64,000 nucleotides of DNA from Alphaproteobacteria bacterium (lineage in GTDB: Bacteria; Pseudomonadota; Alphaproteobacteria; MPNO01; UBA830): contig OZ251539.1 of the NCBI GenBank assembly GCA_965243135.1, forward strand, positions 5,120,001 to 5,184,000, written 5' to 3'. The translations under genes were made by a program, and so were the position numbers. Positions 9,583 to 27,522 of this stretch are shown piece after piece. The notes beneath the pieces were generated by a model. The model saw only the letters and a list, made by a program, of their open reading frames with translations. It was not told the origin of the DNA and searched no databases. Every line of letters starts with the position of its first letter. Positions within the stretch are counted from its first letter, which is position 1.

Positions 9583-10413
9583 GTGAAGCTCCGCGACGTC
9601 CTCGCCCTCCTGCTGATCGCGGTCGTCGCCATCGGCGGGCGGATCTTCGGCGGAGACGCGCCGGGCGAGCGCCGCCCCGAGAGACCGTCGGCGGCGCCGG
9701 CCGCCGGAGGGAACCTGCCCCCGGAATCGTTCGACGATCCGCGCCTGATCGTCGACGTCGGGGAGAAGAACGCGAACGCGACCGGAACCGCGTTCTCCGT
9801 CGATCGTTCGGGCATCTGGATCACGGCGCGGCACGTGACCGAAGGATGCGCCTCCGTGGCCATTCGCCGGGGCGACGGCCGGCTGATCCGCGCGCGCCGC
9901 GTGGCGGCGCAGGGCTACGCCGACATGAGCCTGCTGTGGACGCGCGGCGGCGCGCCGTCATTGCCGACCGTCGACCCCGAACTGAGAATCGGCGAGGACG
10001 GCTACTCGTTCGGGTTTCCGCAGGGCGAACCCGGAGACGTGCATGCGCGGCTGGTCGGCCGAAGCAGGATGCTGGCTCGCGGCCGCTACCGGACGGACGA
10101 GCCGGTGGTGGCATGGACCCAGATACGCCGCGTGCCCGACCGCGGTCCGGATCTCGGCGGCATCAGCGGCGGTCCCTGGGTCAACGCGAACGGAGACGTC
10201 ATCGGCGTGCACGTCGCCGGCGCGCCCCGCCGCGGACGATCCTATTCCACTGCGCCGCGAACGCTTCTCCGTGCCCTCGAAAACGCCGGCCTCCGTCCCG
10301 GCGCCGGACGGACGGACACTCCGGAAAACCTGACCCCCGGCCGCTTCGAGAGATACGGCGACGAACTCCGCAGGCGGCAGACGGTCGCCCAGGTGGTCTG
10401 CCTGGTCGCATAG
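9583..10413 (+). CDS. Trypsin-like (S1) serine protease with N-terminal anchor
   Basis: GTAF, WITARHV (His), DMSLL (Asp), GISGGP (Ser). Confidence 0.85.
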   Translation: MKLRDVLALLLIAVVAIGGRIFGGDAPGERRPERPSAAPAAGGNLPPESFDDPRLIVDVGEKNANATGTAFSVDRSGIWITARHVTEGCASVAIRRGDGRLIRARRVAAQGYADMSLLWTRGGAPSLPTVDPELRIGEDGYSFGFPQGEPGDVHARLVGRSRMLARGRYRTDEPVVAWTQIRRVPDRGPDLGGISGGPWVNANGDVIGVHVAGAPRRGRSYSTAPRTLLRALENAGLRPGAGRTDTPENLTPGRFERYGDELRRRQTVAQVVCLVA

Positions 10414-10468
10414 CCGCGCGTCCGACCGGCGGCGGCGCGGGTTTTTCGAGAGGAAAGGCCCCGGGGCT

Positions 10469-11443
10469 TCAGCCGGCGAGTCTGGCCGTCAACCTGCGCG
10501 CCAGCGCGCCCACCACGCGGCGGCGATACCAGGGCGCGACGGTCGTGGTCCGCATCGGCTTCGCCTGCTTGCGCACGGTTTCGCGAATCGCGTCGAGCGC
10601 GTCCGCGTCGAGCGGCGCGCCGACGAATTTCTCCGTCCCCGTCACCATTTTCGGCAACGGGTTCACAGCGGTCAGCGCGATGCGAAGATCGGCCAGCCTG
10701 CCGTTCTCAATCGCCAGCAGCGCGGCGACGCCGGCGAGAGGGAAGTCGATCGATCCGCGAATGCGCGACTTCTCGTAGCCGGACCGGGCGGCGGCGGGGA
10801 GTCGCGGGAGAAGGACGGACGCGAGAAGCTCTCCCTCTCCCAGCGCGAGATGGTTCATGCCGTCGTCGCGATACAGGTCCGCCAGCGGGGTCGCGCGCGC
10901 GCCGCCGGGACCGACGAGCTCGGCTTCCGCTCCGCAGACCATCATTGCCGGCGCGACGTCTCCCGAATAAGCCGCGAAGCAGCGCTTGCCGCCCGGAGCC
11001 ACGTGGCAGACCGCGCCGAGGTGCTTGAGGCAGAACTCGTTGCTCTCGCGCCACCATTGCGACTGGTTGTAATAGATGCATCGCGTGTCGAGGCACAAAT
11101 TGCCGCCGACCGTGCCGTACCGGCGATGCGTCGGGCCCGCGACGGCCGCCGCGGCCTCCGCGACCGCGGGATAATCCCTGCGGAGGACGGCGTGGTCCGC
11201 GAGTTCCCGAAGCCGCGCGCCCGCGCCGACGCGAACGCGGTCGTCCGCAACCTCGATCCCGGCCATGTCCGCTATGCCGGACAGGTCGATCAGCGCCGCC
11301 GGCGTCTCGATGCCGCGCCGCACGTTGACGATCATGTCGGTTCCGCCCGCGAGGTAGCGCGCCTCCGGGTTAGCGGCCCTCAACGCGACCGCTTCGGCGG
11401 CCGTCGCCGGACGGTGAAGATCGAACTCGGGAAGATATTCCAT
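10469..11443 (-). CDS. hcrB: 4-hydroxybenzoyl-CoA reductase beta (FAD, 4Fe-4S) subunit
   Basis: AGGTD FAD motif, TVGGNL followed by the Cys-rich insertion CLDTRCIYYNQSQWWR..CLK....CHV.....C typical of HcrB. Confidence 0.88.
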   Translation of the reverse strand: MEYLPEFDLHRPATAAEAVALRAANPEARYLAGGTDMIVNVRRGIETPAALIDLSGIADMAGIEVADDRVRVGAGARLRELADHAVLRRDYPAVAEAAAAVAGPTHRRYGTVGGNLCLDTRCIYYNQSQWWRESNEFCLKHLGAVCHVAPGGKRCFAAYSGDVAPAMMVCGAEAELVGPGGARATPLADLYRDDGMNHLALGEGELLASVLLPRLPAAARSGYEKSRIRGSIDFPLAGVAALLAIENGRLADLRIALTAVNPLPKMVTGTEKFVGAPLDADALDAIRETVRKQAKPMRTTTVAPWYRRRVVGALARRLTARLAG

Positions 11444-14536: not shown

Positions 14537-14565
14537 TTGACGGCTCCAGTGCGGCAGCCTACTCT
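14537..14565 (+). promoter_or_regulatory. Putative sigma70 promoter, probably producing a leaderless mRNA
   Basis: TTGACG-17 nt-TACTCT, with the ATG at 14572 only 6 nt downstream and no SD sequence. Confidence 0.5.
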
Positions 14566-14571
14566 CTTCGG

Positions 14572-16102
14572 ATGGCGAGACGCATGCTTCCGACCGGCAT
14601 GACCTCCCTCCGGGAGATCCGGGAGATGGACTGCTACTACGTCGACAAGACGGAGCATGTGCGCCGCCTCGTCGAGAGGGGCAAATACAACTTCCTGTCG
14701 CGCCCGCGCCGGTTCGGCAAGAGCCTCTTGGTGGACACGCTGCAGAAGCTGTTCGAGGGAAGCGAGGAGTTGTTCCGGGGCCTCGCCATACACGACGGTT
14801 GGGACTGGTCGGCGCGCCGTCCGGTCGTGCGGCTCAGCTTCGGCGGACGCAATTTCGTTGTCCCGGACCGCGTTCGGGCAACGGCGGAAAGGCAGTTGGC
14901 GGCGACGGAGCGGCGCGGCGGCCTCGAACCGGGCCCCGTCGATACGGCGGCCCGTTTCCAGGAATTGATCGAGGCCCTGCACGAGCGCACCGGGCAGCGG
15001 GCGGTCGTTCTGGTCGACGAATACGACAAGCCGGTCCGCGCTCGGCGACCGGGAACTGGCGCTGGCCAACCGCGACTTCCTGCGCGACCTGTACGGGGTG
15101 ATCAAGGAGTGCGACGAGCATCTCCGTTTCGTTTTCCTGACGGGAGTAACCAAGTTCTCGAAAGCGGGTCCGCTCTCGGGCCTGAACAACCTGACCGACA
15201 TCACCCTTGATCCGCGTTTCGGCGCCCTTTGCGGCTACACGGACGAAGAGCTGGACGCGGTCTTCGCTCCTGAACTCGAGGGCCTGGACCGGGACGAGAT
15301 CCGCCGCTGGTACAACGGCTACAACTGGCGCGGCGCGGAGAAGGTCTACAATCCGTTTGACGTCCTCTTTCTTTTCGAAACGCGCGAGTTCAAGGCGCAC
15401 TGGTTCGAGACCGGGACGCCAAGCTTTCTCGTCGATCTTCTGTCGCGGCGCCGGGTCGCGCCTCCGGCCCTGGAGAGCATGGTCGCGGACGACTCGCTGC
15501 TGTCGGCCTTCGACGTCGACGACACCGAAGCGCTTTTGTTCCAGACCGGCTATCTGACCATCGTCGGGGAGGAAGCCGTCGGCGTCCGGAGCCTGTACCG
15601 GCTGGATTATCCGAACTACGAGGTGAAGTTCAGCCTGAACGGGCGGCTGCTGCGCACGATGTCTCCGGCAACGGGAGGGGAGGCGATGCGGCAGGCGGAA
15701 CTTGCCAGGCTGACGGCGGAGGACGATCCGGAGAAGGTGAGGGCGCTGTTCGAGGCGTTCTTCGCGAGCGTTCCTCACGATTGGCACCGGAAGAACGACC
15801 TCTACGAGGGCTATTGGGCGGCCCTCGTCTACTCGCACTTCGCGGCGGCGGGGCTGGACGTTCGGGTCGAGGAAGCGACCGCCCGCGGGCGCCTGGACAT
15901 GGCTGTGCTCAGTCCGGGATGCGTGCATCTGTACGAGTTCAAGGTCGTGGATCAACAGCACGAAGGCCAAGCGCTGGCGCAGATGCGGGAGCGTGGCTAC
16001 GCGGACAAGTATCGGCATCTTGGGGTGCCGATCCGGTTGATCGGCATGGAGTTCGGCCGGGAGGAGCGCAACATCGTCGGGTTCGAGTTCGAAACCGCCT
16101 GA
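14572..16102 (+). pseudogene. AAA-ATPase-like + C-terminal PD-(D/E)XK nuclease protein, frameshifted near 15035
   Basis: YYVDKT, LSRPRRFGKS (Walker A), VLVDEYDKP (Walker B) in one frame; FVFLTGVTKFSK..LNNLTDI, WYNGY, YNPFD, GRLDM..YEFK in another. Confidence 0.85.
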
Positions 16103-24709: not shown

Positions 24710-26224
24710 TTACATGCCCCAGATCTCGACGTTCGATTCCGTGCGGCGGAAAACCTTCTCGCTCCAAGGCTTCTTCTCGTCGCGGTCGAAGATCACCAGG
24801 TGGCCCGTCTCCGCCGCGCAGCGGTCCATGTAGCCCGCAACCTGCTCCAGTCCCGCGGCGACCGTCGCCTCCAGGCTCCCGCGCAACATCTTGCACTCGA
24901 CCACGAACTTCTGCTCGCTGCCGCCCTTCGGCCAGACGATCAGCAGGTCGACGCGCCCCCGGCCCAGCCCGAACTCCCGCCCGCCCGCCGCCGTTGAGCA
25001 CCCGTTGCAGAAACGCCTGCAACAGAAGCTGAGGCCAAGCCTCCGGGTACGCGAAGCGGTCCTTCCAGTGATTCTCGCGGAAGAACGTCTGGAACGCCGC
25101 CATTCGCCGCGTCGAGGCCGCCGCCGGCGCCGACGTACCAGGCCCTGCCTGAGCGCCGCCTGCGCCTTCCAGGTCAGTTCGCGCGGAATCACCTCGGCGT
25201 AGACCGGATTGGCGATGCGGAGCGGTCCGTCCTTCGCGAGCAGGCCCAGATCCCGCGCGTATTCGATGTCCCGGTCGGCGACGGCGCTCTCGTCTCCGCC
25301 GGCGAGGATCGGCTCGATCACCTGCCGGACGCGCTCCTCCTCCAGCCTGTACGCCAACTGGTCCAGGTGAGTCACCCGGCTCAGGATGAGCCGCTCCCGC
25401 GCGTCGGCGATTTCGCTGTCCGTCACGGCGCGCGAGCGGTCGCGCCCCGCCTCGCTCTCGAAGCAGGTTTCCCGGGCCAGCGCGTTCACCAGCCACGGCT
25501 GGCCGAGGGTCTGCTCCCACACCGCCTCCTGCGCCTCCGCCGTGAACGCCTGCCCCGTCTCGGCGGTATGCTGACCGAGCAGCGCCAGCGTCTCCTCCCG
25601 GCTGAAGTCTCTCAGCCGCAGCGACTTCGCGACGATGTTGAAGGGGCTGACGGTCGGGTCGATGCGGCAGTCGCGCACGTCCCGCATCCCGCACAGCACC
25701 ACGCTTTGCGGAAAGCCTCCCGGACGCTTGGGGTAGCCCGCGCGCAACTGTCGGAGCACCGAGAGCAGCGATCCGACCTGCAAGGCGTCGATCTCGTCGA
25801 TCAGCAGCACGAGCGGCTTCGGCGACGCTCGGGACCAGCGCGCCAACGCCTCCATCAACGCGTGGTCGGGAACCGAATCGGCAAGAATGCCGCGCCAAGT
25901 GTTGGACAGAAACGGATCGTCGAGTTCCGACCGCGCCTCGAATGCCAGATTGGCGAGCACCGTCCCTATTGCTCTCTCCAAGTCTTGGCCAGCGGTGCTC
26001 GCCCCCTCGACGGTGGCGTACAGGCAATGGTAGCCTTGTCCGCTTAGTAGATCCTGCAGGGCGATCAGTACGGAAGTCTTGCCCGTCTGCCTCGGGGCAT
26101 GCAGCACGAAATACTTTTCGTCCCGAACGAGCCGCAGCACCTCGTCTATGTCCAGACGTTCCAGCGCCGGGATGCAATAGTGCTTTTCGGGCTTGATCGG
26201 CCCCTCGGTATTGAAGAAGCGCAT
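24710..26224 (-). pseudogene. AAA ATPase + PD-(D/E)XK nuclease-like protein with compensating frameshifts in the C-terminal third
   Basis: MRFFNTEGP, HAPRQTGKT, LLIDEIDAL, SPFNI; the expected WYV..GGLD / FQTFFRE..PQLLLQAFLQRVLNGGG / EFGLGRGRVDL..VVECK blocks are spread over three frames between ~25150 and 24970. Confidence 0.8.
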
Positions 26225-26799
26225 GGTCGGGCGGCTTTCGCTACGCTGCCGGACGACGATAGCCCGAAAAGTCGAGGGATGGCAGGCGTGTTCGCGCGGG
26301 CCGCTCATAGATTGATCGCGGCGTTGTCGGCGTCGAGCGCGATGACCGCCACTCCCGAGGCGACCGCGAAGCCGAACAGGGCGGCGTCCCTGCGCAATCC
26401 CTGCCCGGCCGGCCGGCCGTCAACCGAAGAGGGAGCAACGCAATGACCGTGATCTCCGCGCCAGAAGGACCGAGCCGGAAAGGCGAACCTCGCCCACGCG
26501 TCGCAGTGGCCGTAACGAACTCCGAGGCGGCCAAGCGCGTCGGCAAGGCTGAATGCGCAGGGCGTGGAGGTCGTCGACAGCGGTGAAGCCATGCGAACCG
26601 TGGACTGCCTCTGTCGTCATCGGCGGAAAAGACAGCTTGCGATCCGGCGAACTGCCCCTAGACGTCGCCACGTTTCGGTGCGCCGATGGCGAATTCCAGT
26701 TCCTCCGTCGGCGCGCTTGGCTGCGTATTTCCAAGCAGGGCGAACAACCGGGCGGGAGAGGTCGGCTGGCGCGGTCGTACGAGCAGCGGTTTACCGAGG

Positions 26800-26832
26800 A
26801 AAAAAAAGAAGCCGCGCCCGTCGGGCGCGGCT
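26800..26832 (-). terminator. Rho-independent terminator of the NHLP-fusion gene
   Basis: AGCCGCGCCCG-t-CGGGCGCGGCT hairpin followed on the - strand by a T-rich tract, directly at the stop codon. Confidence 0.85.
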
Positions 26833-27454
26833 ATCCGAGCCAGCGGTTGGTCAGGCGCCTGACCATGCCGGCGTAGACGTCGAGGGCCGCGTCGCCGTCG
26901 CCGTTGCCGATCGCCGCGACGGCGGCATCGATCCGCTCGCCGATCCAGTCCCAGTCGGCGTGATCGGCGGGGATCACCGCGACGATCGAGGGCGCCGTCT
27001 CGTAGTAGGCCGCGACCATCTCACGGCGCTCCTCCGTCTCCGACATGTAGCCGTCGCGGAAGCCCCGCAGCGCCGACAGCGTCGGACCGTCGTCCGCCTC
27101 GCCGCGGAGCCCCGCCACCGCCGTGGTCAGGAAGCAGTCGCCGCTCCGGGAACGTTGTATAAGGTTGTCCAGGTTGGCGGCCCACTCTTCGTACGTCATG
27201 TACGACGTGCCGCCAACGACGACGCCGAGATCGTCGTCCGACATCGTGCGGTTGGGGTCGGGCGGGGCCACCACGTGGATCGTGTCCTCGCTGTTCACCG
27301 CGAGGCGCACGTCGACGCCGCTCGGAATCTCAATTCCGTGCTCGGCCAGCGCCGCCTTCGGGTCCGCCTCCATTCGCGAGCGGAACTCGGGGTCACCGCG
27401 CCAACTCTCCTCCATCTCCGCCCAGCGGCCGCCGTCCGTCTTCTCGTTCGTCAT
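26831..27454 (-). CDS. NHLP-leader peptide fused to a CFI-box-CTERM-like domain (207 aa)
   Basis: AGGAG RBS; aa 1-82 SWRGDPEFRSRMEADPKAALAEHGIEIPSGVDVRL.VNSEDTIHVVAPP....MSDDDLGVVVGG; aa 107 onward CFLTTA..DDGPTL.ALRGFRDGY..V.AYY.TAP.IV; own terminator. Confidence 0.85.
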   Translation of the reverse strand: MTNEKTDGGRWAEMEESWRGDPEFRSRMEADPKAALAEHGIEIPSGVDVRLAVNSEDTIHVVAPPDPNRTMSDDDLGVVVGGTSYMTYEEWAANLDNLIQRSRSGDCFLTTAVAGLRGEADDGPTLSALRGFRDGYMSETEERREMVAAYYETAPSIVAVIPADHADWDWIGERIDAAVAAIGNGDGDAALDVYAGMVRRLTNRWLG

Positions 27455-27511
27455 TTTTCTCGTCTCCTGTTCCTTGGGCCATTCCGCCCGCAAGCGGATC
27501 CCTACACTAGC

Positions 27512-27522
27512 GGGGGGGGGGG
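27512..27522. repeat. G11 homopolymer upstream of the NHLP-fusion gene
   Basis: ctagc-GGGGGGGGGGG-caaaa. Confidence 0.85.

Follow-up and report, generated by a model that had tools for sequence, protein, structure and literature searches.

Leaders of the NHLP (nitrile hydratase-like leader peptide) or proteusin type are known to guide enzymes that modify a short C-terminal core in precursors of peptides that are made by the ribosome and modified after translation (RiPPs). Some RiPP precursors carry a further part, as in the bottromycin, borosin and BURP-domain systems, where the addition consists of a short follower or of the very enzyme that makes the modification. According to the part of Haft et al. 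(2010; PMC2887384) consulted here, NHLP precursors are linked to the transport families TIGR03794, TIGR03796 and TIGR03797 and may lie far from their enzymes. Dehydrazole clusters combine an NHLP precursor with a YcaO protein, a dehydrogenase and a DUF4135 dehydratase (PMC10676384, in excerpt), and class II microcins and related substrates lose an N-terminal double-glycine signal to a C39 domain during one-step export, with cargo below 10 kDa (PMC10231218, in excerpt). Here we describe a gene in a 64,000-nucleotide stretch of an alphaproteobacterial genome (contig OZ251539.1, positions 5,120,001 to 5,184,000; referred to as the window) whose product joins an NHLP-type leader, through a variable segment, to a folded and highly conserved C-terminal domain. 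The best explanation that we can offer, with a probability of roughly 0.45, is that the leader directs cleavage after its double glycine and export of a product of about 125 amino acids.

The preliminary description of this gene had recognized in it an NHLP-type leader ending in a double glycine, a variable peptide and a Cys-initiated CFI-box-like domain. This anatomy is backed by hidden Markov models, fold comparison and homologues, and the motifs on which the description relied are all present where it placed them. The leader (residues 1-82) matches TIGR03793 (leader_NHLP) with an E value of 4.5e-11 and 42.4 bits, its residues 20-82 aligning with model positions 15-77, and the Pfam family NHase_alpha at 28.9 bits, above the cut-off of 27.2. 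One fusion relative, in locus L013, passes the cut-offs for both halves (TIGR03793, 54.6 against 50.9; CFI_box_CTERM, 44.2 against 40). The AlphaFold2 model of the whole protein (predicted local distance difference test, pLDDT, 70.9) has an N-terminal part of moderate confidence (pLDDT 56-85), a disordered region at residues 63-105 and a confidently helical C-terminal part. When this model was compared with the PDB using Foldseek, the top two matches were nuclear magnetic resonance structures of proteusin precursors, 8tb1 (probability 1.00, template modelling score on the target 0.56, 36% identity over 77 columns) and 9cjx (probability 0.99); VIA-align gave Z scores of 5.6 (root-mean-square deviation 3.5, 77 aligned) and 5.2, respectively. 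As modelled, the leader is predicted to adopt a nitrile-hydratase-alpha-like fold resembling these solved precursors. In a 26-row alignment (A1) conservation is at least 90% at both G81 and G82, and a [VI][VAS]GG motif is found in all 20 full-length members of the family.

The leader also ties the fusion proteins to ordinary short precursors. MINLTT-type fusion leaders share 69-75% identity with the leader of a short precursor in the window genome (G000) but only about 44% with the next-best fusion leader, and the window's own leader is 56% identical to the short precursor at G000 3491858-3492277. Judged by sequence, leader types are common to fusions and short precursors. A separate observation concerns the short precursor at G000 3271939-3272385, which has the leader type of the MINLTT fusions and a core that starts KTASAQPAP, like some fusion middles, and holds Gly-Cys-Phe before its end. 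Perhaps this gene is related to a fusion gene or is what remains of one; a genome search found no C-domain remnant downstream of it.

An exporter of the expected kind is encoded in the same genome, which is a single contig of 6.1 Mb. Of its 22 TIGR03793 matches, one is the fusion, two fall inside a single genuine nitrile hydratase alpha gene, one is interrupted by an in-frame stop, and the other 18 are intact short precursors whose cores are rich in Ser/Thr/Cys/Gly. There are two C39 ATP-binding cassette (ABC) genes, two YcaO genes and one DUF4135 gene, most of them in an island at 3.779-3.818 Mb, 1.3 Mb from the fusion gene. This island holds an NHLP export set whose members exceed their cut-offs (TIGR03794, 267.9 against 156.2; TIGR03796, 1020.7 against 853.3; TIGR03797, 790.3 against 709.4), together with a fused cyclodehydratase (TIGR03604/TIGR03882) and a SagB-type dehydrogenase (NCBIfam); a second TIGR03796 protein, at 903.2 against the same 853.3, is encoded near 0.12 Mb. 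It had been proposed that no maturase or transporter lies near the gene and that partners would act in trans. The first part holds for C39, YcaO and DUF4135 genes, all of which lie outside the window (radical SAM and halogenase genes were not searched), and the second agrees with the two NHLP-type C39 exporters, two YcaO genes and one LanM-like (DUF4135) gene found elsewhere in the genome. TIGR03796 exceeds its cut-off in all three of the other genomes with a fusion gene, whereas none of the 14 control genomes has it above cut-off.

In one genome (G003) the fusion gene and this machinery lie together. In locus L013 a row of five NHLP precursors begins 58 nt downstream of the fusion gene (9890-10624); after them, on the same strand, come genes for a YcaO protein, a nitroreductase/ThcOx (SagB-type) dehydrogenase and a DUF4135 enzyme. 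Further on, still on that strand, come a 416-aa HlyD-like gene, equal in length to the HlyD-like adaptor of the window genome, and a C39 ABC gene about 16 kb downstream of the fusion. L013 is the only one of the six fusion loci with a modifying enzyme beside the fusion gene.

The precursor loci of the window genome offer three further observations. No fewer than seven NHLP precursors lie in the large RiPP island (G000 3779001-3818000; L121, L122), along with a three-gene NHLP exporter, one SagB-type dehydrogenase, one LanM-like enzyme of the DUF4135 type and a pair of fused YcaO cyclodehydratases. The second C39 exporter is found together with one precursor at G000 110001-128000 (L123). The precursors at G000 3085081-3085773 and 4192170-4192727 encode an identical protein, including about 50 residues of upstream open frame, which suggests a recent duplication of a precursor-carrying segment.

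The export reading can be set out as follows. The structured NHLP-type leader would take the protein to the NHLP-dedicated type I exporter of the genome, made up of an HlyD-like adaptor and two ABC subunits, one of which has a C39 peptidase. The C39 peptidase would cut after G81-G82, and the product of about 125 residues would be exported. This product would consist of a 24-residue N-terminal tail, which differs between relatives, on a compact and conserved five-helix domain starting at Cys107, with the tail probably exchanged as a cassette between the conserved flanks. Among the explanations considered this is the best supported, by the homology and fold of the leader, the conserved double glycine, the exporter in all four fusion genomes, the clustering in L013 and the leader types shared with short precursors, and further by the ratio of non-synonymous to synonymous substitution rates (dN/dS) in the leader and C-domain and by the C-domain being an appended module elsewhere.

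Several observations weigh against it. The TIGR03793 score of the window protein (42.4) falls under the curated cut-off of 50.9. In the distant fusion representative P0067 (201 aa, 40% identity) AAG replaces GG and the linker is just 10 residues long. No exporter or maturase lies within 10 kb of the fusion gene in five of the six loci, and no RNA runs are listed among the public holders of the stretch. The predicted cargo, about 125 residues or 14 kDa, exceeds the microcins of less than 10 kDa that peptidase-type type I secretion systems export according to the excerpt cited above (PMC10231218). Finally, the bacterial C-domain proteins in L049, L051 and L110 are without a signal peptide by eye, and the occurrence of the C-domain on such signal-less proteins and on phage virion-module proteins means that it is not a marker of exported proteins.

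The folded nature of the leader bears on a different possibility, that the product is a cytoplasmic accessory protein whose leader-like domain binds maturases or the exporter as a decoy, activator or regulator without being cleaved, the C-domain adding an interaction. NHLP leaders are folded domains that engage enzymes as proteins (PMC10858898 and PMC12537861, both in excerpt), in line with the matches to 8tb1 and 9cjx; the gene heads the cluster in L013, and P0067 is without GG. We nevertheless consider such a role improbable. The GG and the acidic and hydrophobic residues preceding it are kept in 20 of 20 members, which would be unnecessary for a pure binder, and wholesale swapping of the middle segment is hard to explain for a regulator.

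The C-terminal domain (C-domain) begins CFLTTA, with LRGFRD and YYETAP further downstream, and matches NF041770 (CFI_box_CTERM) at 44.9 bits (cut-off 40; E 7.3e-12) over residues 107-163. The match is partial, to positions 1-53 of the 69 in the model, and is the only one above cut-off in the whole genome. Canonical CFI-box examples score 76.2 bits over positions 1-69 (L054) and 62.4 bits over positions 1-64 (L055); by eye these two and L120 end in hydrophobic stretches, in contrast to the two amphipathic helices that end the window protein. When residues 105-207 were modelled alone, AlphaFold2 returned five helices with a pLDDT of 95.3 and a predicted template modelling score of 0.86. No solved relative was recognized, the best Foldseek matches of the domain alone in the PDB and in BFVD both having an E value of 2.0, and a wide VIA-align search gave best Z scores of 6.0 for the whole model and 5.6 for the domain alone on unrelated helical bundles, a lack of fold match that does not show the fold to be new. 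Prediction of a two-copy complex of the domain, run without controls, scored 0.00 and speaks neither for nor against self-association. Residues T110, R130, R133, D134, Y150, Y151 and P155 are invariant in alignment A2; taken together with the near-invariant C107, they suggest that the domain has a specific site and is more than a bundle.

This domain is by no means confined to the fusion proteins. It was found without the leader in 40 of 45 genome loci, in all 65 metagenome loci and in all 60 viral contigs, and in the loci read it is C-terminal, behind Gly/Asp/Ser-rich linkers. About 30 alphaproteobacterial loci encode proteins of 500-700 residues that carry it at their end, behind Gly/Asp-rich linkers, and that have, by eye, apparent Sec signal peptides. 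These genes stand in a conserved cluster; of 46 loci compared, 29 have a T2SSE ATPase and 26 a secretin-like gene. In Pfam searches of the cluster T2SSE (130.2 bits), TcpQ (48.2 bits) and HTH_17 (43.2 bits) were above threshold and Secretin, T2SSF and Peptidase_A24 below it. On marine metagenome (65 loci) and IMG/VR (60 loci) contigs of low GC content, the domain ends proteins of about 570-1900 residues. In L158 such a protein is encoded between portal/adaptor and major head genes, next to the large terminase. In PHROGs, six large C-domain proteins gave one weak tape-measure match (E 8e-8) and two matches to families of unknown function (E 7e-6 and 5e-4), and one of 50,697 INPHARED phage records matched, over 56% of the domain and annotated as hypothetical. 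The C-domain clusters in the ESM Atlas are all named hypothetical protein (best 0.90), and Uroviricota is commonest among their few recorded members, which serves as a lead only. The C-domain is, as far as this distribution indicates, a portable C-terminal module. CFI-box-CTERM had been put forward as a proposed sorting or processing domain; the domain itself stands, whereas no support for that function was found in print, and the phage virion-module and signal-less proteins weaken it.

Some side observations on these loci may be recorded. In L016-L050 (for example L022 4969-19955) the gene order is HTH_17, secretin-like, two unknown genes, the Sec-type C-domain protein, two more unknown genes, T2SSE ATPase, T2SSF-like and TcpQ/prepilin-peptidase-like. 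Several genomes hold two to four copies of this pilus or type II secretion system (T2SS)-like cluster, which may be a mobile type IVb pilus-like system. In L158 (2448-15905) the order is terminase, portal/adaptor, C-domain protein, a PHROG protein of unknown function, major head and tail protein; L166 and L060-L112 are also marine contigs in which the C-domain ends large proteins of virion modules.

The position of C107 raises the possibility that the C-domain is a self-acting processing module, in which attack by the C107 thiol on the peptide bond before it would release or pass on the upstream part, the variable peptide being set free after the leader is cut. The near-invariant Cys lies exactly at the border of linker and domain, directly after a variable or low-complexity linker in the loci read, the residue that precedes it being variable. 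The domain always stands at the C-terminus, on unrelated passengers, and the seven residues invariant in A2 count in favour too. However, neither Foldseek nor VIA-align detected any fold likeness to known autoprocessing domains, we know of no precedent for Cys self-processing by an all-helical fold, and the invariance of the Cys might just as well reflect a structural role, metal binding, a disulfide or lipidation. We regard self-processing as having a low probability. A broader conjecture would make the five-helix Cys domain a self-acting release or transfer module common to phage virion, pilus-cluster and NHLP proteins, which together with the GG cut would free a short peptide or join its ends, the peptide being diversified by swapping cassettes between a pair of conserved homology arms. 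This is very doubtful; if true, ribosomal peptides would be diversified in a novel way for which no dedicated maturase need be encoded beside the gene.

Between the double glycine and C107 lies the part of the protein that changes most. The segment measures 24-34 aa in the 20 full-length members and is unalignable across subgroups. Over the 190 pairs of these members, mean pairwise identity is lowest in the middle (27%), higher in the leader (51%) and highest in the C-domain (84%), so that a middle hypervariable between conserved flanks, which the preliminary description had made a test of its proposal, was indeed found. In 17 of the 190 pairs the leaders are at least 80% identical yet the middles less than 40%; the reverse is seen in two pairs (P0011/P0013 and P0015/P0020), with middles 80-82% identical and leaders just 40-44%. 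The parts differ at synonymous sites too. By the Nei-Gojobori method, the synonymous divergence (dS) between L014 and L015 is 0.20 in the leader, 1.83 (saturated) in the middle and 0.04 in the C-domain, and between the window and L011 it is 0.12, 0.50 and 0.07, respectively, with small synonymous site counts in the middle (S = 16-24). Small counts notwithstanding, this suggests replacement and recombination of the middle rather than fast point mutation, and the comparison points to a middle swapped as a cassette between two conserved flanks. Calculated in the same way, dN/dS is 0.2-0.7 in the leader and C-domain overall; for close pairs it is given as 0.3-0.6 in the leader and 0.4-0.7 in the C-domain. 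The middle is modelled at a pLDDT below 50 in the whole protein. The window's segment contains no Cys and five Ser/Thr, and many middles start GKTA or GKSA, as do short-precursor cores in these genomes. The earlier idea of a Trp/Tyr-containing core does not extend to the family, in which the segment is not generally rich in Trp or Tyr.

Such a pattern is also what the main rival explanation would lead one to expect, namely that the protein is a true RiPP precursor in which residues 83-106 are the core for leader-guided enzymes (YcaO/SagB/LanM-like or other) and the five-helix domain is a follower that keeps hold of this core or displays it and is later removed at the invariant Cys. A conserved leader before a hypervariable middle is the pattern of NHLP precursor families as presented in the available part of PMC2887384, and the replacement of the middle as a unit (the 17 pairs and the two reverse pairs) and the starts shared with short-precursor cores fit it too. 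The L013 fusion, moreover, heads a cluster resembling the dehydrazole clusters of PMC10676384 (in excerpt). Against this, the middles are without the Cys/Ser/Thr/Gly-rich make-up of co-resident cores, as the window's own segment illustrates, and P0067 has only 10 residues there, after AAG rather than GG. The C-domain is the most conserved part of the protein and occurs independently on unrelated proteins, and no maturase is conserved beside the gene in five of the six loci. A core with a follower is possible, though in our judgement unlikely.

The architecture itself recurs. A word-indexed protein search returned 28 matches among 1430 candidates. Twenty of these (P0001-P0020) align over 92-100% of the query at 50-100% identity, six align with one half only, and the remaining two resemble nitrile hydratases. 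Among species-representative genomes, five of the 45 C-domain loci (L011-L015, in three genomes) also encode the leader, so that four fusion-bearing genomes are known when the window's is counted. A HMMER search of 1.84 billion cluster representatives gave 3521 matches at E <= 0.001, and among the 150 matches listed two (P0017 and P0067) span both halves; no leader was found in the 65 metagenome loci and 60 viral contigs that carry the C-domain. The stretch is present in public runs from three studies, among them runs labelled sponge metagenome. Two contigs from a second study, X4 (556 nt, 26826-27381, 1 difference) and X5 (413 nt, 27039-27451, 7 differences), bridge both junctions independently of the assembly. 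An assembly chimera, or a decaying gene without function, might be suspected for a stand-alone gene with no conserved neighbours. It is contradicted by the 20 protein clusters and four species-representative genomes that have the architecture, by X4 and X5, by dN/dS below 1 in the leader and C-domain, and by the intact frame, ribosome-binding site and terminator, and its probability is minimal; an artefact is excluded for practical purposes. What had been named as able to undo the proposal thus does not apply, in that both halves have matches and the fusion is found in independent assemblies and reads. As a separate observation, contigs in runs X1 and X3 share the 3' DNA of the C-domain almost exactly and diverge upstream of about 27088, which indicates that in these samples a near-identical end of the C-domain is also present on other genes.

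The features of the gene are collected in Table 1. The open reading frame (ORF), with a ribosome-binding site and terminator of its own, is as first described. An ORF finder places the start further upstream, at TTG 27493 (220 aa); close homologues start MTD(E/K)KT, with which the ATG given in the table fits as start codon. The terminator hairpin has a stem of 10 pairs, 9 of them G-C (26832->26810), a loop of 3 and the tail TCTTTTTTTT. It is clear by eye and statistically not rare, the terminator scan of the region having found one site against 0.9 expected in shuffles.

Table 1. Features of the fusion gene (positions in the window)
Feature	Position	Strand	Length or basis
Precursor-like ORF	27454 (ATG) to 26834, stop 26831-26833	(-)	207 aa
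Ribosome-binding site AGGAG	27464..27468	(-)	9 nt 5' of ATG, read from sequence
NHLP-type leader, residues 1-82, ends SDDDLGVVVGG	27209..27454	(-)	HMM and fold
G81-G82 codons, predicted C39 peptidase site (cut after G82)	27209..27214	(-)	Conservation; cleavage predicted
Variable segment, residues 83-106, TSYMTYEEWAANLDNLIQRSRSGD	27137..27208	(-)	Homologue comparison
C107 codon, near-invariant first residue of C-domain	27134..27136	(-)	At least 90% conserved in A1, A2 and A3
CFI-box-type five-helix C-terminal domain, residues 107-207	26834..27136	(-)	NF041770 and AlphaFold2
Stop codon and intrinsic-terminator-like hairpin with T run	26800..26833	(-)	Terminator scan

In the window, the neighbours of the gene encode an AAA_22/AAA_35 ATPase, the tripartite ATP-independent periplasmic (TRAP) transporter components DctM, DctQ and DctP, and a molybdenum hydroxylase. 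All-against-all BLAST of the ORFs in the six fusion loci found no conserved neighbours. DNA of the window and of L011 and L012 is about 90% identical, and the similarity extends beyond the gene by about 80 nt on the upstream side and by about 10 nt on the downstream side. The ATPase encoded next to the gene was considered as a partner and rejected. About 15 paralogues of its gene (24713-26308) exist in the genome. Next to the closest leader paralogue stands a 520-aa gene from a family of well over 100 copies, so that adjacency is expected by chance. The two proteins show hardly any likeness, with 26% identity over 203 residues (E 4e-5). The 520-aa family is an observation in its own right: by tblastn, the 6.1-Mb genome holds well over 100 copies at about 60-88% identity, some in pieces, for example at G000 3493722-3495284 and at 14554-16096 of the window (G000 5134554-5136096, in two pieces). 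This is an extreme gene-family expansion.

The gene matters for what it would add to each of the systems that it resembles. If the leader only drives export, the cargo of NHLP exporters would be widened to a folded domain of about 14 kDa; if the middle is a core, the family would be a precursor class with a protein-sized follower. Either way, it offers a first functional handle on the CFI-box-type domain, which is widespread at the ends of marine phage virion-module proteins and of secreted proteins of pilus/T2SS-like clusters and for which we found no paper. Full-text literature searches with the CFI-box family name and a 7-residue motif returned none, supplementary files lying outside the search, and the available part of Haft et al. 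(2010; PMC2887384) does not mention such a fusion. There is no NCBIfam or Pfam model covering the whole architecture. The statement that no described protein joins the two halves therefore agrees with these searches, and an NHLP-type precursor with a conserved folded C-terminal domain is new as far as the literature searched extends.

The fusion can be placed among known systems as follows. With double-glycine ABC cargo, as far as the excerpt describes it, it shares an N-terminal part that ends in GG and C39 transporters in the genome, but its leader is folded and 82 residues long and its cargo has about 125 residues, against less than 10 kDa there; none of the present results points to an antibacterial function. 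With dehydrazole clusters, as excerpted, the L013 cluster and the 3.78-Mb island of the window genome share their enzyme set, whereas the fusion segment is without the Ser/Thr/Cys-rich make-up of their cores and the gene lies 1.3 Mb from the island. The TIGR03793 NHLP/proteusin precursors share with it the leader sequence and fold, the double-glycine end, the hypervariable stretch after GG, a large paralogue family in the same genome and a dedicated TIGR03794/TIGR03796/TIGR03797 exporter. Unlike in those precursors, the variable stretch is followed by a conserved folded domain of about 100 residues instead of the protein end; this stretch is not Cys/Ser/Thr-rich, the score is under the curated cut-off and the gene is stand-alone in five of six loci. 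The NF041770 CFI-box-CTERM proteins share the Cys-Phe-(Ile/Leu) start, the LRxFRD and YYxxAP motifs and the C-terminal position behind a linker, and their cut-off is passed. Compared with canonical members (L054 and L055, with a hydrophobic tail by eye), the fusion subfamily ends in two amphipathic helices and matches positions 1-53 of 69, and it has an NHLP leader as partner instead of a large surface protein. Finally, in contrast to the extra parts of bottromycin, borosin and BURP-domain precursors, that of the fusion is a helical domain without enzyme likeness which also ends phage and pilus-cluster proteins; like them, it combines a variable or modified peptide with a conserved flanking part that is not a leader.

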